DNA of 64,000 nucleotides from an uncultured Gemmatimonadales bacterium. GTDB lineage: Bacteria; Gemmatimonadota; Gemmatimonadetes; Gemmatimonadales; GWC2-71-9. Each line of letters opens with the position of its first letter. The first letter of the stretch is position 1. This document shows positions 9,046 to 61,398 of the stretch, one piece after another. Location of the stretch: positions 1,536,001 through 1,600,000 of the forward strand of contig CAVZZO010000003.1 of assembly GCA_963779755.1 (NCBI GenBank), read 5' to 3'. Both the position numbers and the translations under genes were made by a program. Below the pieces are notes generated by a model. That model made no database searches. It was not told the origin of the DNA and saw only the letters and a program-made list of their open reading frames with translations.

Positions 9046-9052
9046 AGGAGCC

Positions 9053-13010: not shown

Positions 13011-13061
13011 CTGAACCGCCCCGGGATTGCCGGAGACTCCAGTCTGTGAGAGGTTGGAGCC

Positions 13062-15456
<2,395 letters not shown>

Positions 15457-16129: not shown

Positions 16130-16138
16130 CTCCGCCTC

Positions 16139-16474
16139 CTAGTCTTCCGTGTGCGGCCGGCCCAGCTCTCTGAAGCGCGCCCGTGCGATATCCAGATCGA
16201 GTTTCCGTGTCCGCTGGGCCTTCTTCACAAAGGCGTGCAGCACGTACACCGCTTCCGGCCGTGTTGCGAGATACAGCACCCGAAATTCTCCATCCATGTG
16301 TACTCGGACCTCTCGGACCCCGGGCCCGACACTGGGCATCGGTTTCCAGTCGCTCGGCTCCTGCCCATCCTGGACCCGCCAGAGCTGATAGCCCGTATCC
16401 CTGCGCGCATCCGGAGGAAAGCGGCGAACCGCTGCCTGGGAGCTACCGAGCCAGCGCAGGGGCTTGAGGGCCAT
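16139..16474 (-). CDS. RelE/ParE-superfamily toxin (HigB/Gp49-like)
   Basis: GYQL--VQ-G-EPSDWKPM--VGPGVREVR ... FRVLY ... YVLHAFVKK. Toxin-first gene order. Confidence 0.88.
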   Translation of the reverse strand: MALKPLRWLGSSQAAVRRFPPDARRDTGYQLWRVQDGQEPSDWKPMPSVGPGVREVRVHMDGEFRVLYLATRPEAVYVLHAFVKKAQRTRKLDLDIARARFRELGRPHTED

Positions 16475-16759
16475 GGCTCAATATATCGGTTTGGATATGG
16501 CCTGCCAAGAGAGGGTGCCACCCACACTGTGCCTGCACTCGGATCAGGAGTTCTTTGATTTTGCCCAGACCATCGCTTGTCAGAACTCCCGTGCTGGCGC
16601 TGCGAATTTCTGTCTCCGGTTCGAGCAAGGCGTGCGGATTAGGGGCGGCGGCGCCCTGCGGGGCTTCTGTGGGAGGTGTACGGGGGTGGCCCGTCGGGGG
16701 GAGCTGCTGACGAAATGCGATCCCCGTGCCGGGGACCCGGGCGATCCTCGGTCCACCAT

Positions 16760-17220
16760 CGTATGCCAAGCTGTCACGGCCGGATGAACTTACCGGCCGC
16801 TTCAACGCCCATCAAAAGGGGCGGCTATTGCTGCAGGTCGAGGAAGGCTTTTGGGCCGGTGATAAGAAGGCCGAGGGAGCCCTGAAGCATATGATAACCT
16901 CCGACAAGGTCCTGGTCGAACCCAAGTATGTGGATGCGTTCGAAGTGGCGAACTATGCCAGACTACTGGTAACCTCGAACAACGAGTGGATCGTCCCTGC
17001 CGGGTTTGGCGAAAGACGATTTGCTGTACTCGACGCCGATGATGCTCGTGCCAACGATCTTGCATACTTCGCAGCGCTCCGCCGCGAACTCTTTGAGGAC
17101 GGCGGTTGCGCCCGCTTCTTGAAATACCTGCTCGAAGATGTACGAATTGACTTCCAGACACTCAGACGTCCCCCAGCCACACCAGCGCTCCTCGAACAAC
17201 AACTCGAGAGTCTCGAGCCG
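16760..17220 (+). pseudogene. Fragment of a phage/plasmid primase-helicase C-terminal (DUF5906/D5-like) domain
   Basis: GRFNAH...EE-FWAGDK-AEG-LK-MIT...EPK-VDA-EV-NY-RL-VTSN..W-VPA---ERRF-VLD. Walker A and the primase domain are missing. Confidence 0.75.
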
Positions 17221-17224
17221 GACC

Positions 17225-17391
17225 GAACGGAAACACCTGCCGCCAAACGACGTCGCGGCGGCAGGCGGGTGGTTGGACACCGGACGCTGCAGCGCTGCTA
17301 TCAGCAGTGCGATCCGGACACGCTGAAGGAGGTCGTGGAATTCCAGCGACCCCGGTCACCGGCCTCCGGCCGCTTCCAAGTCACCAAGTGA
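17225..17391 (+). pseudogene. C-terminal remnant of a tyrosine recombinase/integrase
   Basis: Two frames join as TERKHLPPNDVAAAGGWLD / RTLQRCYQQCDPDTLKEVV, resembling the GW...Y catalytic box. It sits next to a tRNA-derived att sequence. Confidence 0.55.
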
Positions 17392-17494
17392 GCCCGTGGT
17401 ACCTCACGCGGCAACTCACTCACTGACTCACACAGGAACTCACACACCTCGCAGATAGGTAAAGCCCGGCAACGCGTAAGTCGTTGTCGGGCTT

Positions 17495-17606
17495 GATTGC
17501 CCCTCCTGGGATCGACGCGTCCGGCGGCGGATGCCGCCGGCGCCGGGCGGAGCCCCGGCGAGCGGACCGAGGCGGCGCAGCCGCCGCAGGTCAACCAGGA
17601 CTCTCC
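17495..17606 (-). repeat. att-like copy of the tRNA-Gln 3' end, split by a 77-bp insertion
   Basis: gattgcccctcctgggatcga (17495-17515) plus aaccaggactctcc (17593-17606) together match 18188-18221. Confidence 0.85.
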
Positions 17607-17708
17607 AATCCGCAGATTGCGCGGATGGCATCAGGTTCGCGGCGAACGCGCTCCATTCCGCAGGAAAACGATACCGACCCCCAGCGGGAAGTGGAGTAGG
17701 GTCGGTCC

Positions 17709-18224
17709 ATGCCAGCTCCGTTCCATCGGACCCGCAGCGGCCGGGACAGGTCGAGGCGTGATCCCCAGACCTACGCTATCATCGGAGCCGCCATGGAGGT
17801 GCACCGCGCCCTCGGGCTCGGCTTCCGGGAGGGGGTGTATCACGAGGCGCTTGCACGGGAGTTTACTCAGCGGCAGATCCCCTATGAGGGGGAAGTCCCC
17901 TTCACCATCGCATTCAAGGGCAAGCCGCTCCGAACCTCGTATCGGGCCGATTTCGTATGTTACGGGGAGGTCCTGGTCGAATTGAAGGCCCTTCGCGCCC
18001 TCACCGGCGTGGAATTGGCCCAGGTGTTGAACTACCTGCGCGCCAGCAGGCTCGAACGGGCGCTCCTGCTGAACTTCGGCGCCTCGAGCCTCGAGTACCG
18101 CCGCATAATTCTCTCCGCGGACTCATCTGCGCAATCTGTGGTCAAATCTGCGCAATCTGTGGTCAAATCTGCGCAATCTGTGGACTGGATTGCCCCTCCT
18201 GGGATCGAACCAGGACTCTCCTGA
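17709..18224 (+). CDS. GxxExxY protein (PD-(D/E)XK nuclease-like family)
   Basis: IIGAAMEVH--LG-GFREGVY, YRADFV, VLVELKA, AQVLNYL and LLLNFG. The C-terminus reads through a 21-bp repeat into the antisense tRNA. Start codon uncertain. Confidence 0.9.
   Translation: MPAPFHRTRSGRDRSRRDPQTYAIIGAAMEVHRALGLGFREGVYHEALAREFTQRQIPYEGEVPFTIAFKGKPLRTSYRADFVCYGEVLVELKALRALTGVELAQVLNYLRASRLERALLLNFGASSLEYRRIILSADSSAQSVVKSAQSVVKSAQSVDWIAPPGIEPGLS
18125..18183 (+). repeat. 21-bp tandem repeat x~3 (atctgcgcaatctgtggtcaa)
   Basis: Units start at 18125, 18146 and 18167, inverted relative to 17610-17627. Confidence 0.9.
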
Positions 18225-26574: not shown

Positions 26575-29367
26575 GTGCCCGCTTCCGTCCTGGAGCGCCT
26601 GCGCACCGCCCTCGCTCCGCACTACAGTGTCGAGCGGGAGCTGGCCAGCGGGGGCATGGGCACGGTCTTCCTGGGCCGTGATCAGGGGCTCGACCGTCCC
26701 GTGGCGATCAAGCTGCTACGGCCGGAGCTGGCCACCGCGGCGCACGCCGAGCGCTTCCTGCGGGAGGCGCGCGTCCTGGCGCGCCTGAGCCATCCCAACA
26801 TCGTCCCCATCCACGACGTGGGCGAGGCGGACGGCCTCTACTACTACATCATGGATTATCTGACGGGCGAGACGCTGTACCAGCGCCTCACCCGCGGGGG
26901 CCTGTCGCCGGCGGAAACAACCAGCCTCGCCCTGGACCTGCTCGCCGCCCTGGACGCGGCGCACCGGCGGGGGGTGGTCCACCGCGATCTCAAGCCGGGC
27001 AACATCTTCCTGGTCGAGGGCCGCGGCATGCTGACCGATTTCGGCGTCGCCAAGTCGCTCGATCCGGCGGAGAGTTCCATCACCGCCAGCGGGACCAATC
27101 CCGGGACGCTGGCGTACATGGCGCCGGAGCAGCTCAGCGGCGGGGCCATCACGCCCCGCACCGATCTCTACGCCCTGGGGATCGTCATGTTCGAGGCGCT
27201 GACCGGGCGGCGCTGGTGGATCCGCGACCAGCGGCAGCAGACCGACTGGTCCGGCGTACCGGCGCCGCTGGGACGGATCCTGCGGAAGGCGCTCGCCTGG
27301 AAACCGGAGGACCGCTGGGCCAGCGCCGCTGAGTTCCGCGCCGCGCTCCGGGCCCGGTCCGGCCCACCGCGACGAAGCCGGGTACTCTGGGTCCTCGGCG
27401 CCGCCACCGTGCTGGTGCTGGGTCTGTGGTGGCTGCGGCCCCCGGCCCAGCCCCCCCGGCTGGCGGCCATCCTGCCGTTTCAAGCCGGTCCGGGCGTAGA
27501 CAGCGTGCTGGCAGCCAACCTGACGGCCCTTGTGGTGGACGAGCTGCACGACGCGCTCCCTCTCTACAGCGACCGGCAATCCGAGCTCTACGCCGCCCAG
27601 ATCGTCCGCGATTCCGGCCGGTCCCGGGGGCTGAGCGCCGTCATCACCGCCCGGCTCGTGGGCCGGCCCGACAGCCTGCGGCTGCGACTCACCATCCTGC
27701 AGCCCGGCGGGGCGGCCCTCCGGCTGCGGGACATACTGGGCGACAGTTCCGGCCGGTACAGCATGAGCTTCGGCGCGGCCAGGGAGATCATGTTCGCCCT
27801 GGTTCCGGAGCTCCATGGGTTCGATCCCCGGAGGGGCTTCAGCCAGGTCCCGCGCGCCTTGAGCAGCTTCGCCGAAGGCATCCGGGCCTTCCGGCAGGAC
27901 CGCTGGAAGGAGGCGCAGCGAGCCTTCGAGGAGGCGCTGGGCATCGATTCCAATTTCGCCATGGCCTCGTGGCGGCTGGTGAACGTGCGCCGCTGGCGCC
28001 GGATACCCTTCGGCGTCGATGTGCGCCGGCTCTATCAGGAGCATGGGAGCGAGTTTGGCGAGAAAGACCAGCTCCTGATCCGGGCGCAGACCGAACCTGA
28101 CCTGAAGGCGCGCTTCGCCGATTACCAGCTGGCGGTAGACCGGTATCCCTACGACGGCTACGCCGCCCTGCTCTACGCCGACGAGCTGTTTCACCGCGGG
28201 CCGCTGGCGGGGCGCGGCCTCACCGAGGCACTGAACATGTTCGAGCATGCGGTGCGGGTGGACTCCCTCCTCGCCCCGGCCTACGACCATATCATCTGGG
28301 GCTACTCCCGGCTGGGCGACCGCGCCGCCGCCCAATCCGCCTACCAGCGCATGAAGCAGGTCGTGCCCCGGTCGCGAGGGGGCGGCGATCTCGACCTGAC
28401 ACTGCTGATGGGCCTGGTGCTGCGCGAGCGCTTCGCGCCGGACTCCCGCGTCGCCTTCGGGCATTGGGAGGACACGGCCGCGGTGAAGGACCTCATCGAG
28501 TCGTTCCGCTGGGGCATCGCGTTCGATATTCCACGGGCCCAGCTGAAGTACGGGCGCATCATTGCCTCCCGCATTCCCTATCCCGAGGTCCGGGCCAGCG
28601 GCCACAACGGCGAAGCGATCGCGCTGATCGCGCTGGGGCGGCCCGCCGCGGCGTTCGCGCAGTTCGACAGTGCCTACCGGATTCTCCAATCCCCCGCGTC
28701 CGACCTTCTGCGCGCCGAGTGGCGCGTACTGCCCGCGGCGCTCGGCCTGCTGCCGCGCGATACGGCCGAGGAAGCACGGGGACGCCGGTGGCTGGCCAGC
28801 GATCCCCTGAGCTTCCGGGCGCAGTGGGCGCTGGCGGTGGCCGACCTGATGGCGGGCGACAGCGGGGCCGCAAGCATGCATGCGGCCCGCGTGAAGGACC
28901 AGGCCGCCACCGACCAGCGCGCGCAGCGGCTGGCGCAGCTCTTCGCGGCCCTCGAGTCCGGGCACCGCGGCCGGTACGATGAAGCCCTCGCCATCTCCGA
29001 GCCGCTGCTGCAGTGGGATTCCGGCGGCCGCAGCGGCGACCCTTTCGCCCGCGCCATACTGCACCTCGCGCGCGGCCAGTGGCTGGACCGCATGGGCCGG
29101 CCGAAGCAGGCGTACAGCGAATGGCTCTGGCACGACAACACCGATCTCGAAGGCTGGCCCGTGCACGAAGTACAGGCGGGCGAAGTGGACTGGTCGTTCG
29201 GCACGCTGGGGCGGCTCTGGCAGGCGCGCGCCCTGCTGGCCACCGGCCGGACGGCCGAAGCCTGTCGTCCGCTGCACCGCGTCCTGGAGCTCTGGTCCGA
29301 TGCCGAGCCGGCCCTGCGCCCCCGGGTGGATTCGGCCCGCGCCCTGGCCCGCAAGTGCCCGCCGTGA
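26575..29367 (+). CDS. Hanks Ser/Thr kinase with TM segment and TolB-N/TPR-like C-terminal region
   Basis: LASGGMG-V, VAIK, HRDLKPGN, DFG and YMAPE. TM near aa 270-287. Confidence 0.92.
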   Translation: MPASVLERLRTALAPHYSVERELASGGMGTVFLGRDQGLDRPVAIKLLRPELATAAHAERFLREARVLARLSHPNIVPIHDVGEADGLYYYIMDYLTGETLYQRLTRGGLSPAETTSLALDLLAALDAAHRRGVVHRDLKPGNIFLVEGRGMLTDFGVAKSLDPAESSITASGTNPGTLAYMAPEQLSGGAITPRTDLYALGIVMFEALTGRRWWIRDQRQQTDWSGVPAPLGRILRKALAWKPEDRWASAAEFRAALRARSGPPRRSRVLWVLGAATVLVLGLWWLRPPAQPPRLAAILPFQAGPGVDSVLAANLTALVVDELHDALPLYSDRQSELYAAQIVRDSGRSRGLSAVITARLVGRPDSLRLRLTILQPGGAALRLRDILGDSSGRYSMSFGAAREIMFALVPELHGFDPRRGFSQVPRALSSFAEGIRAFRQDRWKEAQRAFEEALGIDSNFAMASWRLVNVRRWRRIPFGVDVRRLYQEHGSEFGEKDQLLIRAQTEPDLKARFADYQLAVDRYPYDGYAALLYADELFHRGPLAGRGLTEALNMFEHAVRVDSLLAPAYDHIIWGYSRLGDRAAAQSAYQRMKQVVPRSRGGGDLDLTLLMGLVLRERFAPDSRVAFGHWEDTAAVKDLIESFRWGIAFDIPRAQLKYGRIIASRIPYPEVRASGHNGEAIALIALGRPAAAFAQFDSAYRILQSPASDLLRAEWRVLPAALGLLPRDTAEEARGRRWLASDPLSFRAQWALAVADLMAGDSGAASMHAARVKDQAATDQRAQRLAQLFAALESGHRGRYDEALAISEPLLQWDSGGRSGDPFARAILHLARGQWLDRMGRPKQAYSEWLWHDNTDLEGWPVHEVQAGEVDWSFGTLGRLWQARALLATGRTAEACRPLHRVLELWSDAEPALRPRVDSARALARKCPP

Positions 29368-37504: not shown

Positions 37505-37870
37505 TTACTGGAGCACCGCCCGGGCCATATCGCCGACCGCGTCCGAGTCGGCCAGGCCGGCTGCCTGGATGATGGCGGCCCGATGCTTCTCCCGGTCCCA
37601 GCCGGCCAGGGTCTGCATGGCGAGCATCCGCAGATGATCCTCGGGGGAGAGGGCATGGGGGAACTCCCCCGTGGGCTGGAGCGGCAGCTCGCCCTGGAAG
37701 AGGAGGAACCGGTGGAGCACGTCCTCCGACTCAGGCGACCGGTCCTGCATCACCTGGTGAAAGGCCAGCTTCACCTGGTGCCAGGGATGCGGCAGCGGCC
37801 CGGCGTGCGGCTCGGGCCCGGCGGGGGAGACGCCCAGCAGCTGCCGGAGATACTCGTGCGCCTGGGACAT
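37505..37870 (-). CDS. Hypothetical protein
   Basis: 121-aa ORF 3 bp downstream of 37874..39172. Confidence 0.55.
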   Translation of the reverse strand: MSQAHEYLRQLLGVSPAGPEPHAGPLPHPWHQVKLAFHQVMQDRSPESEDVLHRFLLFQGELPLQPTGEFPHALSPEDHLRMLAMQTLAGWDREKHRAAIIQAAGLADSDAVGDMARAVLQ

Positions 37871-37873
37871 GGC

Positions 37874-39172
37874 TCAGGACATCCAGTAGAAGGCGAGCTT
37901 CGGCGCATCGGGCGGGATGATGCTGGTCTGCACGGTGATGCCGTTCTCTTCCGGCGAGCCGCCGGAGGACTGGGGCGGAGGCACCGCCCGGTAGAGGCGC
38001 CCCGAGACTTCGATAGTGCCCAGCATGTGATCCACCGCGTTCTGCAGGTAGGCCTCCTTGAAGTTCCCCAGCAGGTGCGTCGGCACCGGGGTCTTCCCCT
38101 GCACCTCCGGCAGGGCGAAACCGTCCAGCGAAATGGCCCGGTCCAGGAAGCAGGCATCGTACAGATACCAGGCGCCCTGGTAGCGGAGGAAGTTGACGCA
38201 ATGCCCGTCGGAGGCCACGCCGGGCGAGCCCCAGAACCGGTAGCGCCGCTCCGTCACGTCCTGCACCGGCGACAGGTCCACCGGCTGGGCGGAGACGTCG
38301 TGGAAGAGGCTGGGATCGTCCACCGGCTCGGTCCGGTTGATCCCCGGGTTCCGCACCACGATGGCGCACCAGCGCACATCGTGCTCCGCGTCGGCCGGCC
38401 AGGCCACCCAGAAGCTCCGCCGCTCCACCCGGACGCCCTGTACGCCCGCCATGGCCTGGAACATCCGGTACCAGCCGCCGCAGTAGCCGCCCTGCTTCTT
38501 CAGCATCTGGTGGACCGTCCAGGCCGGCACGGCATACTGCAGGCCCGTGGTACGCACCTTGGCGATGATGGCGTCGCAGATCGCCTTCTCGTCGGCGCAG
38601 CCGGCGGCCCAGTCGCAGGTCCAGCGCAGCAGCGGCTCGAAGACCCAGCGCCCGGCCACCGAGGCGGGCCGAGGCGCCCGGGCGGCCCGGTTGCTGCGAT
38701 GCCAGAGCACCGCCTCCACCGGCATCTTCCAGACGAGATAGATCAGATGGCTGCTGGTTCCGAGCGGCACCTCGCGGCTGCCGGCCCGGGCGGTCCATTC
38801 CCACTCCACCTGCACCGACCCGATGGCCGACGGCAGCGCGGCCTCCATCTCGAGTTCGCAGGGCGCCGAGCGGCCATCGGGGTTGAACTGGAGCCGCACC
38901 TCTCGCGCCGCGACCCCCGGGCCCCCCGTCCCTCGCGCCTGAACGGTCCAGGCGCCATCGTCCAGTCCGGCGGACCGGTTCAACACCACCCGGATGCGCG
39001 GGCGGGTCCCGCAGGGGTATGCGGCGGGGTCGGGACTGCTCCCCGCCCGCCACTCGGGAACGGCGCCCAGGAAACGCTCATCCCCGGGATCGCGGATGGG
39101 CACCGCCTGGTCGTTCTCCTGATAGGCGAACGCGATGCTCTGGATTGCCGGCGGTGGGCCGCTGCCTGCCAT
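37874..39172 (-). CDS. Hypothetical protein with possible transglutaminase/papain-like Cys-His-Asp triad
   Basis: GGYCGGWYRMF--MA--QGV helix, then GHCVNF and WYLYDACF. Divergent from the RiPP locus. Confidence 0.6.
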   Translation of the reverse strand: MAGSGPPPAIQSIAFAYQENDQAVPIRDPGDERFLGAVPEWRAGSSPDPAAYPCGTRPRIRVVLNRSAGLDDGAWTVQARGTGGPGVAAREVRLQFNPDGRSAPCELEMEAALPSAIGSVQVEWEWTARAGSREVPLGTSSHLIYLVWKMPVEAVLWHRSNRAARAPRPASVAGRWVFEPLLRWTCDWAAGCADEKAICDAIIAKVRTTGLQYAVPAWTVHQMLKKQGGYCGGWYRMFQAMAGVQGVRVERRSFWVAWPADAEHDVRWCAIVVRNPGINRTEPVDDPSLFHDVSAQPVDLSPVQDVTERRYRFWGSPGVASDGHCVNFLRYQGAWYLYDACFLDRAISLDGFALPEVQGKTPVPTHLLGNFKEAYLQNAVDHMLGTIEVSGRLYRAVPPPQSSGGSPEENGITVQTSIIPPDAPKLAFYWMS

Positions 39173-39365
39173 ACCGGACTCCGGTCGTGCGCTGAGGGAT
39201 CGTCCATTGTAATACCGGCGCCGCCCCGCCGCCCGGGAAGAACCGGCACCTGCTTGACGCGGACCGTGCCGCTCCCTATATCAGCCTACCGCCTTATCAC
39301 CGTTCCCTGCGGCGGGCCGGTTCTCCGGCCCGGGCGTCCCACCCTTTGCCCCCTGGAGGTCCCAT

Positions 39366-39560
39366 ATGTCCCGCTTTACCAGCAGGGATCTGATGGTCTC
39401 CGTCCTGCCGGAGGATGGAGTCGAGTTGATGGCCGGTCCCAAAGGATGCTTGAAAAACACTACCGGGTGCACCAACGTGACCAAAAAGCTGTACCCCGAG
39501 CTCTCCGGCCCGGACGACCTGGCCCTTCTGCAGGAGCAACTCACGCTGGCACAGCTGTAG
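39366..39560 (+). CDS. Putative RiPP (lanthipeptide-like) precursor peptide, 64 aa
   Basis: Strong GGAGGT RBS, core GCLKNTTGCTNVTKK, first gene ahead of the lyase and kinase-LanC genes. Confidence 0.8.
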   Translation: MSRFTSRDLMVSVLPEDGVELMAGPKGCLKNTTGCTNVTKKLYPELSGPDDLALLQEQLTLAQL

Positions 39561-39566
39561 GCTTCC

Positions 39567-39596
39567 GGGCGGAAGCGCCGATCCGTGCTTCCGCCC
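39567..39596 (+). terminator. Stem-loop after the precursor gene
   Basis: gggcggaagc-N10-gcttccgccc, a perfect 10-bp stem with no strong U-tract. May attenuate or stabilise the transcript. Confidence 0.55.
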
Positions 39597-39613
39597 CTGT
39601 TCCTCCCTCCCCG

Positions 39614-40762
39614 ATGTCCACACTCCAGGAGTCGTTATTGCAGCGGCGATTCCGGGCTGCTTCCGCGTGGCGGATGGCAGCCTGGGACCGGTTGAGCCCG
39701 GGACGGCAGGCGTGGCTGCGTTCCTTCCGCGGCGATGACGATTTCTTCGGCATTCTGGAGCCCCGGGAGGCAGGGCCCGGCGTTCAGGCGATCTCCCGGC
39801 CCACCGCCCGGCTCTTCCAGCGGCTGGGGCGCCCAGCGCGCCTTCCCGCCGAGTTTCTCGAACAGGAAGGCGCCGCCGCCGCCCGCACCGCGGCCCGCCT
39901 GGTGCTGGACGGCGTCCTGGAAATCGAAGGCGACGGCGCCTTCGTGGGCGGACCGGCGGCGCATGCGGTCCTCTTCACCCCCACCGCGCCGGCCATCCCG
40001 CGCAGCGGAACGGCCCGGCTCTCCCGGGCCGCATTGCATTACGGCGAATCGCTGCGCCTGCGTGACGCTGCCCTGCTCGCTGCCCGGCTCTACCGGTTCA
40101 ATACCGAACCCGCGACCCCGCGCCTGCGCCGCGACCTCGGCGGCCGCGATGCGATTGGCCGGCTGCTCCGGAGCACGGGAATCTCCTGGGTGCAGAACCC
40201 GGCGCGCGCATGGCTCACCTGGGCTCCGCCGCGGCCCGGTCCTCCGGTCGAAGGGCGGCGCCACTACAAGCTCTACCTGAGCATCCCCGCCGCCCACCTG
40301 CCTGACGCGCTCCCGACCGCGCTCGGCGTCCTCCGCCGGGTGCCGGGTATCGATTCGGCCAAGCTGGGCGCAGACATTCCCGGCCTGATCCGGCCCGACA
40401 AGTTCGTGGTCTACTTTGCCCGCCGGCGTGACCTGCGCGCGGCAGCCCGGCTGCTGGCCCCCGCGCTCGAGGGCCTCCCGGCGCAGGGCGTTCCCTTCAG
40501 TGCCGGGCTGGAGCGCCGGGGCGTGCTCTCCTGGGGCGCCGAGCCGGCGGCCGACGAACCCGTTCCCGCGGGGTGGCAGGGCACCAGCTGGAGGACTCGC
40601 ATCGTCAGCCGGCTCGCCTCCGCGATGGCGGCGGCGCTCGCGCTGGACCACGCGCCTGTGCCCCCCTGGCGCTTTGCCCAGGACCGCCTGAGCCTCGACG
40701 GGGTCGATCCCAGGACCTGGACCCCAACCCCCGCCTTCCACTCGGACGGCGGCTCGCCATGA
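39614..40762 (+). CDS. HopA1-like domain protein (putative phosphoSer/Thr lyase)
   Basis: RLYRFN, YKLYLS, AKLG, RPDKFVVYF, GVPFSA and LSWG-EP...SWR motif order. Start MSTLQ inferred. Confidence 0.7.
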   Translation: MSTLQESLLQRRFRAASAWRMAAWDRLSPGRQAWLRSFRGDDDFFGILEPREAGPGVQAISRPTARLFQRLGRPARLPAEFLEQEGAAAARTAARLVLDGVLEIEGDGAFVGGPAAHAVLFTPTAPAIPRSGTARLSRAALHYGESLRLRDAALLAARLYRFNTEPATPRLRRDLGGRDAIGRLLRSTGISWVQNPARAWLTWAPPRPGPPVEGRRHYKLYLSIPAAHLPDALPTALGVLRRVPGIDSAKLGADIPGLIRPDKFVVYFARRRDLRAAARLLAPALEGLPAQGVPFSAGLERRGVLSWGAEPAADEPVPAGWQGTSWRTRIVSRLASAMAAALALDHAPVPPWRFAQDRLSLDGVDPRTWTPTPAFHSDGGSP

Positions 40763-43150
40763 CGCTGACGGAGCCGCTGGTCCTGCGCCCGGACGTGCTG
40801 ATCATCCCGGTGCCCCGGCTCCCGGACCGGATTCGGCGGCAGATCCAGGCCGACCCTTCCGAATTTGCCGTGACTCTGCGCCACGGACGGGGTGGCTCGC
40901 GCGTGGTGACGGCCGAGACCGCCCGGCTGCTGGAAGGTTTCCGGTCGCCCAGCCGCGTGGTCGAGGTCGTCCTGCGGTACAGCAGGGAGCAGGGAGTGCC
41001 ACCCGATCGGTTGCTCGCCGACGTCTTTCCCGTTGTGAGCGACTGTTTCAACCAGCGATTTCTGGTTCCGGCCGCTTCGCCCGATGCCCGCCGCATCGAG
41101 CCGCTGCTGGCAAGCGGCGCGCGGGTGGCCGGCTGCGAGATCCGCCGGCTGGTTCATCTGCTGGAGGACACCGAGGTCTACCAGGGGCTCGCTTCCTCGG
41201 GCCGGGCCGTGGCCGTCAAGCTGGCCCGGTCCGGCTCGCGTGTCGTACGCGAGGCGTTTCGGCGCGAGGCCACCGTCCTGCGCCGGCTCCGGGGAAGGGG
41301 CGCACCGCGGGTGCTCAGGGCCGCCAACCGGCAGGGGCGGCCCTGCCTGGTCCTCGAGTGGTGCGCCGGGGTGCCGCCCACCATCACCCCCGGGGGGCCG
41401 TCGTCCCCCGGCGAGCGGATGCGGCTGCTGCTGGCCATCCTCCGCCGCTACGCGCGGCTGCATGGCCTGGGCGTGCTCCACGGCGACGTCCATCCGGATA
41501 ACATCCTGGTTGACCGGCGCGGCGGGGCGACGCTGCTGGATTTCGGCCAGTCGGCCCTCACCCGGGGCCGGCCTCCCGTTGCGCCCGGCCCCCGGGGCGG
41601 TGTGGCCTGGTATCTCGATCCCGAGTATGCCGGGGCGCTTCTTCGCGGCGAGCCGGATCCGCCGCTCACCGCCGCGGCGGAGCAGTACAGCCTGGCCGCC
41701 CTCGCCTATCGCCTGCTCACCGGCGACCACTACCTGGAGTTCGGGCTGGAGCGCCCGGTGCTGCTCCGCCAGATCGTGTCGGACGACCCGCTCCCCTTTG
41801 CCCGCCGCGGCACCGAGCCCTGGCCCGCGGTGGAAGCGGTGCTCGAGCGGGCGCTGGCCAAGGATCCGGGTGCCCGCTACCGGTCGGTCGCGGCATTCGC
41901 CCGGGCACTCCGCGCGGCCGCCGCTCGCCCGCGACCGGGCGGGCGGGTCCCCAGGAAGGAGGGGGCCGAACTGGAACATGCCGTTCGGCAAACCATTGAC
42001 CTGCTGGACCCGTCTGCCGCGCTCTTCGGCGGCGCGCTGGAGGCGCCTTCCTGTTCGGTGTGCTATGGATCGGCCGGGATCGCCTTCGCGCTCTACCGCT
42101 TCGCCTCGATGCGCCAGAGCCCGGCGTTGCTGGCCGCCGCCGACAGCTGGCTCACCCGCGCCGAGCGGGAGAGCGGCCACCCGGGCGCGTGGCACAACCC
42201 GGCGATCGACATGGGCGCCGGCGACGTGGGCCCGATCTCGCTTCTCAACACGCCCGCCGGGCTGCATCTGGTCCGGGCCCACCTGGCTCAGGCCGTGGGA
42301 GACCAGGAGGAGCTGACCCGGGCGGTCGAGCGGTTTCTCGACGCGTCCAGCACCCCCTGCGACAGGCTCGACCTCTTCCTCGGCCGGGCCGGCACGCTGC
42401 TGGGCATCGTTCTGCTGCTCGAGTTGCTGCCGGAGGGGGCAACCGCCGCCGCGGCCAGCCTGCGGAACGCGGGCACGGAAGCGAGTAGATTTCTCCGGGA
42501 CCATATCAATGCACTGCCGGTGCCCGGTGCCACCGGCGGCTTCAGCACCCTGGGCATGGCTCACGGATGGGCGGGCCTGCTCTACGCGCTGCTCTGCTGG
42601 CAGCGGGTCTCGGGGACCGCGCCACCGGCCTGGCTGGACCCGCGCCTGACCGCAACTGGCGGCTCTGGCCGAGCCGGTGGGACGGGGTCTGGGGTGGGTC
42701 AATGCCCTGCCGGCGGGGAACGAGGCCGCGGCGCCGGCAGCGGGCTGGTGCAAGGGAGCCGCGGGGTTCGTGCATCTCTGGCTGGAGTCCCATCGTAGCG
42801 GTGGGAACCGGGATCACCTCCGGCTGGCGGAGGCGAGCGGATGGACTGCCTGGGAGGCGGCCGAGCCGATGTCCAATCTCTGTTGCGGCGTCGCCGGCCG
42901 CGGATATGCCCTGCTGCGGCTGTACCGGCACACCGGATCGCCGGTGTGGCTGGAGCGCGCCCGGCGCCTCACCCTGCATGCGGTACGATCGCTGCGCCAC
43001 ACGGCGCGCGACCCCCAGGCCATGAGCCTCTACAAGCATTGGCTGGGGATCGCGCTGCTGGCGGCCGACCTGCAACGACCCGAACAGGCCTGCATGCCGC
43101 TGTTCGAGAGCGAAGGCTGGCCCGTCTCCGCCCCGGGAACCCATGGCTGA
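40759..43150 (+). CDS. Ser/Thr kinase-LanC cyclase fusion (lanthipeptide synthetase-like) with one frameshift near 42650
   Basis: Kinase: VAVK, HGDVHPDNIL, DFG. LanC: YGSAGIA, DLFLGRAG, GMAHGWAG, then in the shifted frame GWCKGAAG, LCCGVAG and SLYK-WLG-ALL. Confidence 0.85.
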
Positions 43151-46100
43151 TCTGAGGACCCTGCTGCAGGCCTCGCTCGAGGGCCGCTATCAGGTGGAGC
43201 GGCAGCTTGGTCGTGGCGGCATGGCCATGGTCTACCTTGCCCGCGACCTGCGCCACGACCGCCGGGTTGCCATCAAGGTGCTGCTCCCGGAGCTGGCGGC
43301 CGGCATCAGCGCCGAGCGGTTTGCCCGCGAGATCCGGGTGGCGGCGAACCTGAGCCATCCCAACATTCTGCCGCTGTACGATTCCGGCCTGCTGCAGTTA
43401 CCCATGGCCGAAGGTCAAAGGTCGAGGATCGGAGGGGAGGCTTCGGACTTCGAGAGGACGCCGCTGGCCGTCCCCTACTACGTCATGCCCTACGTGGAGG
43501 GTGAATCGCTGGCGCAGCGGCTCCACCGGGAAAGCCAGCTCCCCATCGAAGAGGCGCTGGAGATCGCCGAACAGGTCGCCGCCGCGCTGGCGGCGGCGCA
43601 CGAACAGGGCGTCATCCACCGCGATATCAAGCCGGAAAACATTCTGCTCTCGGGCGGCCGCGCCATGGTGGCCGACTTCGGGATCGCCCGGCCGGTGAGC
43701 GCCGAGGAGACCGCGCGGCTCACCGACACCGGACTCATCGTGGGCACGCCGGAGTACATGAGTCCCGAGCAGATTGCGGGCGACCCCCGGCTGGACAGCC
43801 GCAGCGACATCTACAGCCTGGCCTGCGTGGTGTACGAGATGCTGGTGGGGGAGCCGCCGTTCACCGGGCCCACGCCCCAGAGCATCCTGGCGCGCCATAC
43901 GCTGGAACGGGTCCACAGCATGCGCAACGTGCGCGACACCATTCCGGAGTCGGTCGAGCTCGCCGTGGCGCGCGGGATGGCCAAGGCCCCGGTGGACCGG
44001 TTCCGTACCGCCGCCGATTTTGCGCGTGCGTTGCGCGCCCCCGCCCCCCCGCCGACCCGGGAATATCCCGCTCTCGCTCCCGGCCGGCCTCGCGCGCGCT
44101 GGATGCTGGCGGCGGCCCTCACGGTATTGGTCCTGGTCGCCGTGGCGATCGGCTACCGTCTCCGGGACCGCCCGCCGCGGCCCCTCGCGCTGGATCCTGC
44201 CCGAGTGGCGGTTCTCCCCTTCCGGATCACCGGCACGGACGACAGCGCCTCACGGCTGCTGGCGCGGAGCGCGAGCGATCTTCTGGCCCAGCGGCTGCCC
44301 GGTGGTGGCGGTCCCGCGGCGGTGGATCCCGGCACCGTGAGCGGCGCGCTCAACCGCCTCCCGGCGCCGGACCGCGCGGCCCTCACCCCGACCATCGCGA
44401 GCCGGGTCGCGGGCATGGTGGGCGCGGGACAGGTTCTGCTGGGCGATCTCTGGACCGGCGACGGCCGGGTCGTGCTGAATGCCACCCTGCTGGACGCCCG
44501 CAACCAGCAGCCGATCACCCGGGTAGAGAACGTGCGGGGCCCGCCGGACAGCCTGTCGTCGCTGCTGGATCGTTTCACCACCGAGCTGCTGGTGCGTGCC
44601 GCGGGCGAAGCCGACCGGCTGCCGGAACTGCTCGGCCATCCGCTGCCGGCCTTGCGCGCCTACCTGGGAGGCACACTGGCCTATGCCGGCGGCAGGTTCT
44701 CCGAGGCCGCCGACCGCTACATGGCCGCCTTGCAAGCCGATCCCTCGCTGGCGGCCGCCACCCTGGGGCTTGCCTCGCTCTCTACCCTGGAGAAGGTGGA
44801 CGCCTGGCGGGACTCCGCCTGGCGGCGGCGGTCGGAGCTCATGCCGGCAGACCGGGCCTACCTCGCGGCCCTGGTGGGCCCGCGCTATCCCCGGGAATCG
44901 TCCGTAGCCGAGCGGTTGGCCGCCTGGGAGAAGGTGGTGGCGGCCGACCCCAACCACTGGGAGCGCTGGTACCAGCTGGGCGAACTGCTCTACCATTCCG
45001 GCCCGCTGCTCGGCGTGCCCGGGATCCACGAGCGGGCCGGGGCCGCATTCCGCCGGACCCTGGACCTGGCCCCCCGCTTCGTGCCGGCCCTGGGGCACCT
45101 GCTGGACCTGGCCGCGAGCGACACCGACACCGCCCAGGTGCGAGCCCTGGGCACGCGGTACCTCGCGCTGGACTCGGTGGGCGACCTGGCCGACTACTAC
45201 CGCTGGCGCATCGCCGTAGCGCTGGGCGACAGCCTCGCGCTGGCGCGGCTGCGCGGCCGCTTCAGCGACCTGAGCGTCGCCACGCTCGACCGCATCATCG
45301 AGATGTCCCAGCTGGACGGGGTCGCCCTGAGCGATGCCGTGCGGGCCGCGCAGGCACTGCGCAGCGGAAGCGGCCTGAGCGGCGACACCCGCGTGGCGTT
45401 CATGAAGCTGCAGGAGATCGCGCTCAACCGGGGACGACCGAAAGAAGCCGCCGACCTGTCCCGCCAGCAGACCTCTGAAATTTCCATCCGGCCGCGGGAC
45501 CGGTTCACGTCGGTGGCGGATGCGCTCTACTGGGGCGCGGACACGGTCCAGGCCGCGCGGCTGGTCCAGCAGTCGGCCGCGATCGCCGATGCGCCGGCAC
45601 GCCCCGGCGAGCCGGACAGCTCCGACGCCTACTTCGACGTGTGCGCCACCGGGCTCTGGCGCGCAGCGCGGGGAGAGATGGCTACCCTGCCCCGCCTCAT
45701 CACACGGCTACGCCGGGTCGCTCACCCCTTCGACCAGTTCCAGACGGGCTACATCGGCCTCTGCGCCGAAGTGCTGGAGACCCAACTCGCCTCCTCCCTC
45801 CGCCGGCCCGACCTTCCGGTGCTGGTGAACCGGCTGGACAGCCTCATGCGCACCGGACCGCCCTCGATTACCTGGATGCTGGTGGGGTCGAACCTGACGG
45901 TGGCGCGGTTGCGCGAGGCCCAGGGCGACTATCCCGCCGCGCTGGCCGCCACCCGGCGGCGGATCTACGTGACCGACCTGGGAGAAATCCGGATCCTGGT
46001 GGGGCTTTCATCCTTCCTGCGGGAGGAAGGCCGGCTCGCCGTCCTGGCGGGCGACACCACCGCGGCGGTGAGCGCCTACAGTCACTATCTGGCGTTGCGG

Positions 46101-46190
46101 GACGATCCGGAGCCGGGGGTGAAGCCGGAGGTGGAGAAGGTGCGGGCGGCCTACCTCGCCCTTGAAAAAGGACTGGGAGAAAAGGACTGA
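43143..46190 (+). CDS. Hanks Ser/Thr kinase with TM segment and TolB-N/TPR-like region
   Basis: GRGGMA-V, VAIK, HRDIKPEN, DFG, GTPEYMSPE, TM and VAVLPF. Overlaps the LanC stop by 8 bp. Confidence 0.92.
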   Translation: MADLRTLLQASLEGRYQVERQLGRGGMAMVYLARDLRHDRRVAIKVLLPELAAGISAERFAREIRVAANLSHPNILPLYDSGLLQLPMAEGQRSRIGGEASDFERTPLAVPYYVMPYVEGESLAQRLHRESQLPIEEALEIAEQVAAALAAAHEQGVIHRDIKPENILLSGGRAMVADFGIARPVSAEETARLTDTGLIVGTPEYMSPEQIAGDPRLDSRSDIYSLACVVYEMLVGEPPFTGPTPQSILARHTLERVHSMRNVRDTIPESVELAVARGMAKAPVDRFRTAADFARALRAPAPPPTREYPALAPGRPRARWMLAAALTVLVLVAVAIGYRLRDRPPRPLALDPARVAVLPFRITGTDDSASRLLARSASDLLAQRLPGGGGPAAVDPGTVSGALNRLPAPDRAALTPTIASRVAGMVGAGQVLLGDLWTGDGRVVLNATLLDARNQQPITRVENVRGPPDSLSSLLDRFTTELLVRAAGEADRLPELLGHPLPALRAYLGGTLAYAGGRFSEAADRYMAALQADPSLAAATLGLASLSTLEKVDAWRDSAWRRRSELMPADRAYLAALVGPRYPRESSVAERLAAWEKVVAADPNHWERWYQLGELLYHSGPLLGVPGIHERAGAAFRRTLDLAPRFVPALGHLLDLAASDTDTAQVRALGTRYLALDSVGDLADYYRWRIAVALGDSLALARLRGRFSDLSVATLDRIIEMSQLDGVALSDAVRAAQALRSGSGLSGDTRVAFMKLQEIALNRGRPKEAADLSRQQTSEISIRPRDRFTSVADALYWGADTVQAARLVQQSAAIADAPARPGEPDSSDAYFDVCATGLWRAARGEMATLPRLITRLRRVAHPFDQFQTGYIGLCAEVLETQLASSLRRPDLPVLVNRLDSLMRTGPPSITWMLVGSNLTVARLREAQGDYPAALAATRRRIYVTDLGEIRILVGLSSFLREEGRLAVLAGDTTAAVSAYSHYLALRDDPEPGVKPEVEKVRAAYLALEKGLGEKD

Positions 46191-58417: not shown

Positions 58418-58549
58418 GGTCAGACATGCCTGAGGAGTGGTCAGACATGCCTGAGGAGTGGTCAGACATGCCTGAGGAGTGGTCAGACATGCCTGAGGAG
58501 TGGTCAGACATGCCTGAGGAGTGGTCAGGCATGCCTGACCACTCCTCAG
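58418..58549. repeat. 21-bp tandem repeat x5 ending in a perfect 36-bp palindrome
   Basis: (ggtcagacatgcctgaggagt)x5; palindrome at 58514-58549. Confidence 0.95.
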
Positions 58550-61398
58550 TTCGCGCCTTCCCCGCTCACCCTTGCCAGTCCTTCCTTCGCCTGCTGGTCC
58601 AGGTACTGGAGCGAGCTGTCGGCGCCTTTCCAGAGCGCCCGGAACTGGGTATAGGCATCGGCGGCGCCGGCGCGGTCGCCGGCGGCCTCCAACGCCCGTC
58701 CCAGCGCGAGGTCGGCGGAGGGCCGAACGGTGAAGTCGCTGACAAACCCGTTCTGCAGGTGGCGGATTCCATCCTCCCGGGTCTCCGCCCGCGACACCTC
58801 CAGGAGGGCGAGCTCGAAGCGGGCGAAGGAGCTCAGGAAATCCATTCCCATGAGCTGGGCCTGGCGTAGTCCGCCGCGCATCTCCCGGATGGCGGTCGCG
58901 GTATCCCCTTCCAGGGCGCTGGCCCAGCCGCGGAAGGCGCGCGCCGCCCCCTGGACGGTGCTCGAGGTATCCGGCAGAACCTTGAGCCCTTCAGCGATCA
59001 CCCGGCGCGCCTCAGCGGGGCGGTTGTGTGTCAGTTCCCACATTACCCGCGTCCGCCAGGCGAAGGGGTTGTTCAGCGGTACCCGGTTGATCACGCCGGC
59101 CATCGGCCCGGCGAACGAATCGTCCGTGAGGCGTGAGAGCGGGCCGATCAGGTATCCCCCGCTCGCCACCTGCGGGTTCACCGCGCGCAGGCTGTCCACC
59201 ATCGCCCGGGCCTGTTCCACCCGGCCCAGCCCGACCAGCACCGCCGCCGCGCTGATCATCATGTTGGCCCGGGCGGTGGCGTCCATCCGTTTGGCTGCCT
59301 GGCCCAGGAGCGACCCGATAATCGGGGTGATCCGCGGATTCGAGTCGGAGTACTGCGCCATCATGACGCCGAAGGTCGGCCCGGTGCCGGCAGTGGCGAT
59401 CTGACGAAGCGCCGAATCGGTGGCGGCGCCCCACAACGCCTTGCCCGCCAGGGCGTACTCCCGGGTTTCGGTCGAGTCGCCGTATTCCCGCATCAGGGCG
59501 AGGTAGCGATAGAACCGGGTGCTGTCGTGGTCGGCCGCCGCCAGCTCGAGCGGGTGCACCACCGCGGGCACCAGTGAGGAATCGCGCCGGATGACCGAGT
59601 CGAACGCCGCCAGCAGCTCGGCATTGCTGTTGGCCAGGAGCGGGCGCATGTGGTACATCGCGTCGCCCAGAAAGAACCAGCCGTCCACGTCGGCCGGGTT
59701 GGCGGCCAGGTAGCGGCGCAGGCTGTCCACCGTGGACGGGTCTCCCAGCTCGAACAGGCGGTACGCGCCGAGCAGGCGGCGCTCCCGCTCGGGCATGCGG
59801 TCGACATAGGTGCGGGCCAGATTCAGCGCCTCGATGGTTCCCGGCGCCTGCCATCCCGACTTCCAGCCCAATGTCAGGGCCAGCCGGAAGCTGGCCAGCG
59901 CGAAGGTGGAATCGGCGGCGATGGCGCGCCGGAAGGCGGCCGTGGCCGAATCCCAGTCGGCGGAGCGGTAGAGCTGCTCGCCCCGCAGGTACTCGCGCAT
60001 GGCGTCCACCGACGTGGTGGTGAGGGCGCTGACCCGCAGCGAAGGGATGGGCTCGTTCGAGCGCCAGATGTTGCGCATCAGCGCGAGGCTCAGGTCGTCC
60101 ACCAGCTGGAGCACGCTGTCGGCGCTGCCCTCCACCTGCGCCGCCGCCAGCTGCTGCCGGTCCCGGGCGTAGAGCGTGGCGTTGAGCCGGACACTGTTGC
60201 CGGTCGAGGTGATACTCCCCAGCACCACCGACCCGGCACCCACCTTGCGTCCCACCGCCAGCGCGCCGTCCAGGTCTTCATCGCGATTCCCGCCCCGCTC
60301 CCGCCACTGCGCCAGCACCGAGCGGGGCTCCACCGTGCGGATCCCACCCACCGCATTCAGGTTGGTGGAGAGCAGGTCCACCATGCCTTCCGTCAGGTAG
60401 TCCACGCCGGGACCCGAGGTATGGAAGGGCAGCACCGCGATGCTCTCGGCCCCCTTGACCACGGGGCCCCGCGCCCGGCGGCCGCCGATGTACCAGCCGG
60501 CGACGACGGCGGCCACCACCAGCGCGGCTCCGACCAGCCCGATCCGCCAGTCCAGGCCCCGGCGGGTTCCCTGCTTCAGGGCCCGGGAGAACTCGGCCAT
60601 GGTGGCGAAGCGGGCGGTCGGCTCCGAGGCCATGGCGCGGCCGATCGCCTGGTCGACCGGCTCCTCCACATCCTTGCGCTCGGCCCGGACCCGCGGCCGC
60701 GGACCGGTGATCGCCTGGGTGAGCACCGACTGCATGGTGGGGCCGCTGAAGGGCTGCTTCCCGGTCAGCATCTCGTAGGCGACACAGCCCAGGCTGTAGA
60801 GATCGCTGCGGGGGCCCACATCCTCGCTCGCGGTGGCCTGCTCCGGACTCATATAGGCCGGCGTGCCGATGGCCAGACCGGTCCCGGTGAGCTGCTGGCC
60901 CTGGCTGGCCGCGTTGATGGCCCGGGCGATCCCGAAATCGGCCACTACGGCGTGCCCGCCGGAAATCAGGATATTTTCCGGCTTGATGTCGCGGTGGACG
61001 ATCCCGCGCTCGTGCGCGTAGCCGAGCGCGCTCGCTACCTCCTGGGTGAGCTGCACCGCCTCATCGGCGGGCAGCCGCCCTTCCCGCTGCAGTTTGTCGC
61101 GCAGGGACTCGCCCTCGACAAACGGCATGACGTAGTACAGCATCCCCGCGGCCTCGCCCGAGTCGTACACCGGCACGATATGCGGGTGCTGCAGCCCGGC
61201 GGCCAGTTCGATTTCCCGGAGGAACCGCCCCTTGCCCAGAGTAGCCGACAGCTCCGGCCGCAGCACCTTGATGGCCACCTGCCGGCGATGCTTGCGGTCT
61301 TCGGCCAGGTACACCGTGGCCATGCCGCCGGCGCCAAGCTCGCGCTCCACATCATACCGCTCCGCCAGGGCGGCCTTCAGCTGGTCAAGGATCGTCAC
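58546..61398 (-). CDS. Hanks Ser/Thr kinase with TM segment and TolB-N/TPR-like region
   Basis: GAGGMATV, VAIK, HRDIKPEN, DFG, GTPAYMSPE, TM and IAVLPF. Confidence 0.93.
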   Translation of the reverse strand: MTILDQLKAALAERYDVERELGAGGMATVYLAEDRKHRRQVAIKVLRPELSATLGKGRFLREIELAAGLQHPHIVPVYDSGEAAGMLYYVMPFVEGESLRDKLQREGRLPADEAVQLTQEVASALGYAHERGIVHRDIKPENILISGGHAVVADFGIARAINAASQGQQLTGTGLAIGTPAYMSPEQATASEDVGPRSDLYSLGCVAYEMLTGKQPFSGPTMQSVLTQAITGPRPRVRAERKDVEEPVDQAIGRAMASEPTARFATMAEFSRALKQGTRRGLDWRIGLVGAALVVAAVVAGWYIGGRRARGPVVKGAESIAVLPFHTSGPGVDYLTEGMVDLLSTNLNAVGGIRTVEPRSVLAQWRERGGNRDEDLDGALAVGRKVGAGSVVLGSITSTGNSVRLNATLYARDRQQLAAAQVEGSADSVLQLVDDLSLALMRNIWRSNEPIPSLRVSALTTTSVDAMREYLRGEQLYRSADWDSATAAFRRAIAADSTFALASFRLALTLGWKSGWQAPGTIEALNLARTYVDRMPERERRLLGAYRLFELGDPSTVDSLRRYLAANPADVDGWFFLGDAMYHMRPLLANSNAELLAAFDSVIRRDSSLVPAVVHPLELAAADHDSTRFYRYLALMREYGDSTETREYALAGKALWGAATDSALRQIATAGTGPTFGVMMAQYSDSNPRITPIIGSLLGQAAKRMDATARANMMISAAAVLVGLGRVEQARAMVDSLRAVNPQVASGGYLIGPLSRLTDDSFAGPMAGVINRVPLNNPFAWRTRVMWELTHNRPAEARRVIAEGLKVLPDTSSTVQGAARAFRGWASALEGDTATAIREMRGGLRQAQLMGMDFLSSFARFELALLEVSRAETREDGIRHLQNGFVSDFTVRPSADLALGRALEAAGDRAGAADAYTQFRALWKGADSSLQYLDQQAKEGLARVSGEGAN

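Follow-up and report, generated by a model that had tools for sequence, protein, structure and literature searches.

The described lanthipeptide synthetases that come closest to the system considered here belong to classes IV and V. The class IV LanL enzymes (CuvL, PDB 8car/8cav; NCBIfam NF038150) carry a lyase domain, a Ser/Thr kinase and a zinc-type LanC cyclase on one chain, and their presumed chemistry is phosphorylation, elimination and Michael addition. In class V (LxmKY, PDB 9dk1-9dk3; CaoK/CaoY), as in the thioamitide pathways (TvaC/TvaD), the lyase is a free-standing HopA1-type protein, and the class V partner kinase is a free APH-type LanK. Here we describe a locus that combines parts of both, in a window of 64,000 nucleotides from an uncultured Gemmatimonadales bacterium (GCA_963779755.1, contig CAVZZO010000003.1, positions 1,536,001 to 1,600,000; positions below count from the first letter of the window). 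On its forward strand, three tightly packed and co-oriented genes at 39366-43150 encode a small peptide, a middle open reading frame (ORF) and a kinase-LanC fusion. We consider it likely that they form a lanthipeptide-type cassette for a peptide that is made on ribosomes and modified after translation (RiPP), with a synthetase naturally split in two proteins, each of which begins with a RiPP recognition element (RRE). The source genome (4.23 Mb in 4 contigs, 97% complete) holds a single copy of the lyase gene and of the precursor gene, and no second such peptide was found in it. The parts of the cassette are as follows.

39366..39560, + strand: precursor peptide gene, an ORF of 64 amino acids, with GGAGG 7 nucleotides 5' of its ATG
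39614-40762, + strand: middle ORF, the putative lyase, 382 amino acids, with motifs YKLY, RPDKFVVYF, VPF and SWG
39614..39946, + strand: N-terminal RRE-like domain of the lyase, residues 1-111 (structure model, hhalign)
39980..40762, + strand: predicted HopA1/LanY-type phospho-Ser/Thr lyase domain, residues 123-375, with the C-terminal tail (structure model, conservation)
40759-40762, + strand: start of the kinase-LanC gene, in an ATGA overlap with the lyase gene
40759..41094, + strand: predicted N-terminal RRE of the kinase-LanC protein, residues 1-112 (structure model)
41173..41940, + strand: Hanks-type Ser/Thr kinase domain, residues 139-394 (Pfam Pkinase, E 8.4e-15)
42052..42651, + strand: first part of the LanC domain, residues 432-631, frame A, with the AHGW His602 (Pfam LANC_like positions 5-180 of 350, E 1.1e-10)
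42646..42655, + strand: frameshift, one extra base (alignment to intact homologues)
42653..43150, + strand: frame B, second part of the LanC domain, containing the three zinc ligands (LANC_like positions 215-344 of 350, E 8e-11)

The preliminary description of this DNA, made from its letters, had named the peptide, the motifs of the middle ORF, the ATGA overlap and the kinase and LanC motifs, and each was recovered at the position that it had given. The public gene call for the lyase (362 residues, 95% of our query) starts some 20 codons after 39614. The longer form fits better, since the later start would cut off the first strand of the RRE together with the conserved R14.

The predicted fold of the middle ORF supports its identification as a HopA1/LanY-type lyase. 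A structure model (m88d089d2d6ee) built on 40 relatives had a mean pLDDT (predicted local distance difference test) of 93.1, and Foldseek ranked LxmY and HopA1 at the top of its matches (E 2e-7). When residues 123-375 were aligned to solved structures with VIA-align, the class V lyase LxmY was the best match (9dk1_B; Z 15.1, 226 aligned residues, root-mean-square deviation 3.9), and the same residues gave Z 15.0 over 221 residues for HopA1 (4rsw_B), 13.6 over 166 for the class IV enzyme CuvL's lyase domain, 11.3 over 150 and 10.6 over 149 for the class III enzymes ThurKC and SalKC, and 8.6 over 132 for SpvC. The same core fold is shared with OspF/SpvC and with class III LanKC lyase domains (ThurKC, SalKC, PneKC; Z 8.6-11.3), but these align over 132-150 residues against the 221-226 of HopA1 and LxmY. 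The HopA1 fold that had been proposed for this ORF is thus borne out by the model, which lies nearer to LxmY and HopA1 than to the lyase domains of classes III and IV.

By sequence, the family sits between the HopA1 and RamC_N lyase models. Pfam HopA1 was touched weakly by 7 of the 40 relatives (best E 0.0031) and RamC_N by 5 of them (best E 2e-4), while the window protein touches neither. The members of the family are proteins of about 390 residues, unnamed or called 'hypothetical protein', of which 311 were recovered at E <= 0.001 among 8000 scored candidates; in a set of 1.84 billion clusters the family has 1609 representatives at E <= 1e-3, 1466 at E <= 1e-10 and 1165 at E <= 1e-30. A search for longer forms of the lyase returned a single longer hit, of 706 residues; its additional 330 N-terminal residues show no relation to the family and probably reflect a gene call that begins too early. 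This search turned up no fusion of lyase and kinase, which is weak evidence by the method's own limits.

Six lyase residues are invariant or nearly so in the family alignment: K219, Y221, K250, R260, K263 and Y267. The spacings within K219/K250/R260/Y267 are 31, 10 and 17 residues, and those within R187/K219/R229/Y236 of CaoY, which are reported as mutationally tested (PMC9486802), are 32, 10 and 17, so that the intervals between the last three residues, Lys, Arg and Tyr, are identical in the two proteins. Because the spacing matches, K250 is the likely base and R260 the likely phosphate ligand, and K219 would be the counterpart of Lys104 of SpvC (PMC10604976). A Lys-x-aromatic/His strand and a conserved Lys about 31 residues later are also shared with OspF, SpvC and the class III lyases. 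The position of CaoY Arg187 would apparently be taken by a Lys (K219), as in OspF and in classes III and IV, and that of the SpvC acid His106 by Tyr221; all these pairings with CaoY and SpvC residues rest on spacing rather than on superposition.

The third gene encodes the remaining predicted activities. Its frame A (from 40759 onward) contains HGDVHPDN (residues 241-248), DFG (261-263) and AHG (601-603), and its frame B (42653-43150) WCKG, with the Cys codon at 42749-42751, and CCG, with the two Cys codons at 42881-42886. The NCBIfam LanL model (NF038150) is the best model match of the fusion (E 4.2e-28), over profile positions 203-685 and 713-810 of 851, and its scores of 98.2 bits in frame A and 43.6 bits in frame B do not reach the equivalog cut-off of 650. 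The match starts only at position 203, and residues 1-112 are predicted to fold as an RRE, in agreement with the earlier view of this fusion as lyase-less. By sequence, the nearest solved relatives of the kinase are the PknB kinases (E 5.5e-15), ahead of any solved synthetase, and the APH model covers a stretch of 29 residues only. For the LanC part, the best matches by sequence were LanCL2 (6wq1, E 6.1e-12) and LanCL1 (3e6u, E 1e-8), with the class IV enzyme CuvL more distant (E 0.0037).

Conservation of the active sites was followed in an alignment of 66 sequences, made of 65 intact homologues and the window protein read through with an X at the break. Kinase residues K154, E170, D243, N248 and D261 are present in all 66, and the catalytic residues taken together, including H241-G-D243 and D261-F-G263, in 64-66. 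In the cyclase, His602 and Cys665 are each found in 65 sequences, and Cys709 and Cys710 in all of them. Aligned residue by residue, WCKG of the window falls onto WCHG, and CCG onto CHG, of LanCL2 and LanCL1. The preliminary description had read CCG as the three-Cys zinc set of ProcM-type cyclases; in the alignment it takes the place of the zinc pair CH(G), and the zinc-binding His of LanC is replaced by Cys in the whole family. An all-Cys zinc set also occurs in the ProcM-type enzymes, which are noted for their substrate tolerance.

Both enzymes carry an additional N-terminal domain that resembles the RREs, a winged-helix fold with three strands and three helices. For the kinase-LanC protein, a model of the first 140 residues (mb9f411992a3d, 36 relatives, pLDDT 87.2) aligned with TigE (Z 10.4), TbiB1 with its leader (10.0), a lasso B1 protein with its leader (9.8), PqqD (9.7), MccB (8.9), ThcOx (8.5), MibB (8.2) and the RRE of PbtF (7.9). 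For residues 2-111 of the lyase, structure alignment to leader-binding regions gave more modest values: MibB 7.4, TigE 6.9, TbtB 6.1, MadB 6.1, and more weakly NisB 5.6, MccB 5.4 and TbiB1 5.2. When compared by hhalign, the two domains match one another over 68 columns (probability 70%, E 3.9e-5), and the Pfam PqqD model matched neither at E <= 0.1. The suggestion that both N-termini are RRE-like modules is thereby upheld at the level of predicted structure (Z 7.9-10.4 and 5.2-7.4, respectively). These domains have the fold of PqqD, TbiB1 and the NisB/MibB regions, in which a strand pairs with leader peptides; what differs in this cassette is that one is fused to a lyase and the other to a kinase-cyclase.

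Does this gene order exist elsewhere? Relatives of the lyase are encoded in 132 genome stretches, of which 80 were retained (designated L001 and so on below), in a survey of neighbourhoods such as the preliminary description had called for. In 75 of the 80 the N-domain of the kinase-LanC protein is encoded downstream of the lyase. Two of the five others are at contig ends, two have about 800-1100 nucleotides of downstream sequence and no hit, and in L049 the kinase and LanC parts are present while the N-domain hit is absent. According to the record titles, 55 loci are from Acidobacteriota (mostly Thermoanaerobaculia), 10 from Gemmatimonadota, 6 from Actinomycetota and 3 from Chloroflexota; Armatimonadota, Nitrospirota, Bacteroidota, Myxococcota and Bacillota contribute one each, which makes nine phylum labels in all, and one locus is unclassified. 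Catellatospora sp. KI3, an actinomycete in culture, is the source of L072. In 65 of the 68 loci in which both ends are present, the kinase-LanC gene is a single ORF.

The third element is the peptide. That of the window appears from its sequence to be a short member of a precursor set built in three parts: an N-terminal recognition motif (residues 4-15, FTSRDLMVSVLP), a core (about residues 16-49, with C28, T32, T33, C35, T36 and T39) and a C-terminal amphipathic helix (residues 50-64, DDLALLQEQLTLAQL). Its other Thr residues are at positions 5 and 60, and neither Pfam nor NCBIfam models matched it. In an alignment of 18 upstream peptides (A3), M1, F4, L9, C35, L55 and L59 are invariant. A strict pattern, requiring the N motif, at least one Cys and the C motif within 35-140 amino acids, was found upstream in 22 of the 80 loci, and in none of 80 reverse-complement controls or 54 downstream control windows. 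The first reading of this locus had made its interpretation depend on similar peptides being present at homologous loci, and these counts show them at a part of those loci. A hidden Markov model (HMM) of the N motif was then built from those 22 loci and the window, which therefore match it by construction. At E <= 0.01 it found 33 hits upstream and on the same strand in 31 of the 80 loci, 9 of them new, and 2 hits elsewhere, each of which marks another precursor-like ORF. With the limit relaxed to E <= 6 there were 52 hits in 50 loci, 28 of them new, and 6 elsewhere, 5 of which are precursor-like.

Across 58 such peptides the N motif reads F-x-x-[RK]-D-L-M-V-x-V-L-P, with F in 52, R/K in 50, D in 45, L in 58, M in 29, V/I in 52, V/L in 52, L in 23 and P in 36. 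Fifty of the 58 have a C-terminal L-x-x-L-[QRK]-x-x-L helix, and in 25 of these a further helical tail of 50-80 residues follows. The cores between the two are hypervariable, from 20 to about 200 residues, often repetitive, and have a high content of Gly (12.5%), Cys (11.4%), Thr (11.0%) and Pro (9.5%). LanA peptides are characterised by a short ORF next to the synthetase gene that joins a conserved segment for recognition to a variable core bearing Ser/Thr and Cys, and this holds here too; what sets our peptides apart from known LanA peptides is that conservation extends to both ends, with the core between them. An amphipathic helix is given as the leader motif of class III and IV peptides in excerpts of a 2025 review (PMC12328550). 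The helix of our precursors resembles it, yet it is C-terminal to the core, whereas that of class IV precursors is N-terminal.

Some loci hold precursors of the size of proteins (L005:2366-3178, L005:3213-4061, L023:5135-5989 and L014:2126-2905; 259-284 amino acids, 26-29 Cys), with repeated Cys/Thr modules such as C-T-D-C-T-T-x-x-F-S-I-C-G-T and a long coiled-coil-like tail at the end. A second precursor-like ORF is found 3-4.3 kb 5' of the lyase gene in L004, L007, L010 and L073.

How far does the cassette fit the described classes? It shares with class IV a Ser/Thr kinase, here with its Lys, Asp and DFG in place, followed by a zinc-type LanC on the same chain, and the same presumed chemistry. 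However, no OspF-like lyase is present on that chain, which begins instead with an RRE of 112 residues, and the zinc set is Cys-Cys-Cys and not Cys-Cys-His, in a domain that is moreover split by the frameshift in the window. The taxonomic range also differs: class IV is placed in Actinobacteria and Firmicutes only in the excerpted 2025 review (PMC12328550), and the loci found here carry the labels Acidobacteriota, Gemmatimonadota and those of seven more phyla. With class V it shares the free-standing HopA1-like lyase, recognised by fold and not by Pfam PF17914 for the window protein. But a separate APH-type LanK (PF01636) is absent, the kinase being Hanks-type and fused to LanC, and there is no separate cyclase (LanX or free LanC), since 65 of 68 loci encode it on one chain with the kinase; nor does class V LanY have the extra N-terminal RRE.

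One could argue that the cassette belongs, as an ordinary member, to one of the described classes (IV, or V/Vb) and that its layout is already in print. Surveys file proteins with Pkinase and LANC_like domains under class III/IV (Walker 2020, PMC7268733), a 2026 peat survey reports 73 'class IV lanthipeptide' clusters (PMC13642348), so that such genes have been counted before, and a free LanY lyase is already in use in class V (PMC9486802). In surveys that call class III/IV from Pkinase and LANC_like alone, as the consulted parts of the first two of these indicate, our genes would be counted without the difference being noticed. Against this stand the late start and the low score of the LanL match (position 203; 98 bits against a cut-off of 650) and the fusion of a Hanks-type kinase to LanC in place of a free APH-type LanK. 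Furthermore, an identifiable RRE is lacking from every enzyme of classes II-V according to a passage of a 2023 structural paper (PMC10604976); this is repeated for class III in an August 2026 paper, which in its consulted portion gives classes I-V and no split RRE form (PMC13504147). Our literature search, which covered open-access papers and bioRxiv but not subscription journals, found no description of this layout. We therefore hold an ordinary membership to be unlikely. The earlier view of a class IV/V hybrid outside the standard classes stands, as defining features of both classes fail and the RREs and the follower helix are added. The locus is most likely a two-protein, RRE-guided lanthipeptide synthetase that fits no described class; it is a real, conserved and apparently undescribed variant.

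The folds, catalytic residues, gene linkage and three-part precursors observed above lead us to propose the following chemical steps, binding partners and ring pattern. The N-terminal strand motif of the precursor, F-x-x-R-D-L-M-V-S-V-L-P, would first dock on an RRE; its alternating D-L-M-V-S-V-L-P part is strand-like, which is only suggestive of docking as an added strand. The Hanks-type kinase would then phosphorylate Thr or Ser residues of the core (T32, T33, T36, T39), and the free HopA1/LanY-type lyase would remove the phosphate to leave dehydrobutyrine or dehydroalanine, with K250 (or K263) as the base, K219 polarising the carbonyl and R260 holding the phosphate. The zinc LanC, with its Cys-Cys-Cys site, would finally add C28 and C35 to dehydro residues to form thioether rings. 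The C-terminal helix could serve as another recognition element, perhaps one that the kinase domain reads in the way of the class III/IV leader helices. An RRE of its own would allow the free lyase to find the substrate without the tether of classes III and IV or the kinase binding of class V.

Several observations weigh against this reading. The lyase call rests on the predicted fold: Pfam and NCBIfam models gave no match to the window lyase, with nothing for Pfam HopA1 (PF17914) even at E <= 10, either on this protein or across the window's own genome; its profile reached only chance level against solved structures by sequence (best E 0.12), and its proposed catalytic residues are paired with those of CaoY and SpvC by spacing. 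The window peptide has only two Cys, C28 and C35, and no N-motif hit was found upstream in 30 of the 80 loci even at E <= 6. Neither a protease nor a transporter was found beside the cassette in 10 annotated loci, except for one S8 subtilase; in this it is like most class III/IV clusters, which are described as mostly without a dedicated protease in the consulted part of PMC8341899. To these must be added that the kinase-LanC gene is frameshifted in the window, and that cassette copies in this clade may be decaying.

The frameshift had been noted from the start, and the given sequence does contain it. In alignments with five intact homologues, frame A matches as far as 42648-42651 and frame B takes over at 42653 without the loss of a residue, which places one extra base at about 42652. 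Beyond the break, frame A reaches a stop at 42796-42798. As the break lies between the acid/base His602 and all three zinc ligands, this copy could, as sequenced, at most phosphorylate and dehydrate its peptide, its cyclase being left without a zinc site. Programmed frameshifting was considered and rejected in view of the single frame in 65 of 68 loci and of the three split loci, which break at different places.

The cassette could be real and the present copy a dead relic of it, the frameshift being a true mutation; this would leave the interpretation of the family unaffected, and we judge it nearly as probable as not. The extra base is outside any long homopolymer, and when the 41 other ORFs of the window were compared with Pfam, broken genes, with a domain split between frames, were found only in the insertion sequence (IS) region 13148-15762. 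Indel errors thus seem infrequent in this assembly, and the frameshift may be a real mutation. No public sequencing run was listed for 39300-43200. Moreover, the lyase, and with it the cassette, is present in only 2 of 40 relatives searched, and in one of these, a genome of the same taxonomic order (L083, G032:C7:8956-12726), the lyase is without an RRE, its match starting from residue 105, and stands directly behind a precursor-like peptide with one Cys, so that L083 looks like an eroded cassette copy. It is this RRE-less lyase, together with the frameshifted fusion of the window, that suggests that copies in this clade may be decaying. On the other hand, no conserved residue is missing from either half of the fusion, and the downstream frame stays open as far as the normal stop; a single indel error is possible in a 4-contig assembly, and the 3 of 68 loci split elsewhere could equally be assembly errors. 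The present copy is thus possibly inactive.

The surroundings of the cassette contain the following features.

37505..39172, - strand: divergent gene pair, 432 and 121 amino acids, without family (synteny with the cassette)
39254..39282, + strand: candidate promoter TTGACG-17 nucleotides-TATATC, 5' of the peptide gene (read from sequence)
39567..39596, + strand: 12-bp stem-loop in the gap that separates the peptide gene from the lyase gene (RNA fold)
43143..46190, + strand: Ser/Thr kinase of 1015 amino acids with a TPR-like C-terminal region (Pkinase, E 1.1e-46)

The last of these genes overlaps the stop of the kinase-LanC gene by 8 nucleotides, and full-length orthologues (42-49% identity) lie directly downstream in five Gemmatimonadota-type loci (L001, L008, L033, L036 and L061). 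The 64-kb window contains three paralogous Ser/Thr kinase-TPR genes of about 930-1015 amino acids (43143-46190, 26575-29364 and 58549-61398). In acidobacterial loci, proteins of about 1180 amino acids with a tandem double kinase and a PD40 beta-propeller flank the cassette (L006:1952-5512, L006:9552-13082, L010:2030-5569 and L045:1783-5343). In L010 the second precursor-like ORF is directly 5' of the double-kinase PD40 gene, and for this reason the double-kinase protein may be part of the cluster.

This adjacency raises another explanation, in which the enzymes would not serve a dedicated peptide but modify proteins, for instance the co-encoded Ser/Thr kinases on their activation loops. Kinases are targets of OspF-type lyases and of eukaryotic LanCL proteins, and the LanC part of our fusion is closer to eukaryotic LanCL2 and LanCL1 than to CuvL. 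The overlapping kinase gene and its orthologues in five related loci, the acidobacterial double-kinase PD40 proteins and the absence of a transporter from the 10 annotated loci would also accord with it. Nevertheless, both enzymes carry RREs, a hallmark of peptide-leader recognition, and the conserved upstream ORFs, with hypervariable Cys/Thr cores between conserved ends, look like RiPP precursors. Kinase genes abound in these genomes, as the three of this window illustrate, so adjacency is weak evidence, and L029, L012, L048, L072 and L021 have no extra kinase nearby. Protein modification seems to us quite improbable, and the peptide-modifying cassette remains the preferred interpretation.

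The divergent gene pair has orthologues upstream in L008, L017 and L061, the 432-residue gene being present in L083 as well. No family was found for either protein, nor a solved relative for the larger one, for which the ESM Atlas gave a weak lead to a transglutaminase core (score 0.78); it could be a peptidase. The TTGACG/TATATC pair is only a lead, as a consensus scan of 39000-39700 did not report it and found neither a sigma-70 promoter nor an intrinsic terminator. The RNA of 39552-39616 folds at -27 kcal/mol (z -3.31), and none of 200 shuffles folds as well; the predicted stem-loop is not a classical terminator, because it has no T-run. At a distance from the cassette, an IS cluster (10855-15762) comprises a Mutator-family transposase gene (10855-12057, - strand) and, at 13148-14113, 14019-15446 and 15433-15762, an integrase gene with a second HTH_38/rve element interrupting its rve domain. 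Stretches of lower G+C (0.62-0.63 at 4001-10000 and 16001-18000, against about 0.70 elsewhere) adjoin the insertion sequences and may be acquired DNA.

In conclusion, the cassette merges class IV parts, the Hanks kinase and the zinc LanC, with a class V part, the free HopA1-type lyase, and adds RREs to both proteins. Lanthipeptide classes are sorted by the organisation of dehydration and cyclisation, and each new class has brought new chemistry, leader rules and engineering tools. We tentatively put forward, as a possibility somewhat short of even, that these genes represent an undescribed, multi-phylum class of synthetase made of an RRE-LanY-type lyase and an RRE-kinase-LanC protein with an all-Cys zinc site. 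As parts of the same tentative reading, the substrate may be recognised at both ends, by its N-terminal strand and its C-terminal helix, so that the enzymes could assemble on it; the middle would be unconstrained and could range between about 20 and about 200 residues of repeated Cys/Thr modules, up to protein-sized products stapled by multiple thioethers; and these products may signal to the sensor kinases of the same operons. The family is large, with more than 1400 clusters at 50% identity, mostly from little-cultured soil phyla, and surveys seem to book it as 'class IV'. The all-Cys zinc site, the hypervariable and often repetitive cores and the recognition motifs at the two ends suggest a substrate-tolerant system that would be useful for peptide engineering, and the locus of the cultured Catellatospora sp. 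KI3 makes the family testable at the bench.

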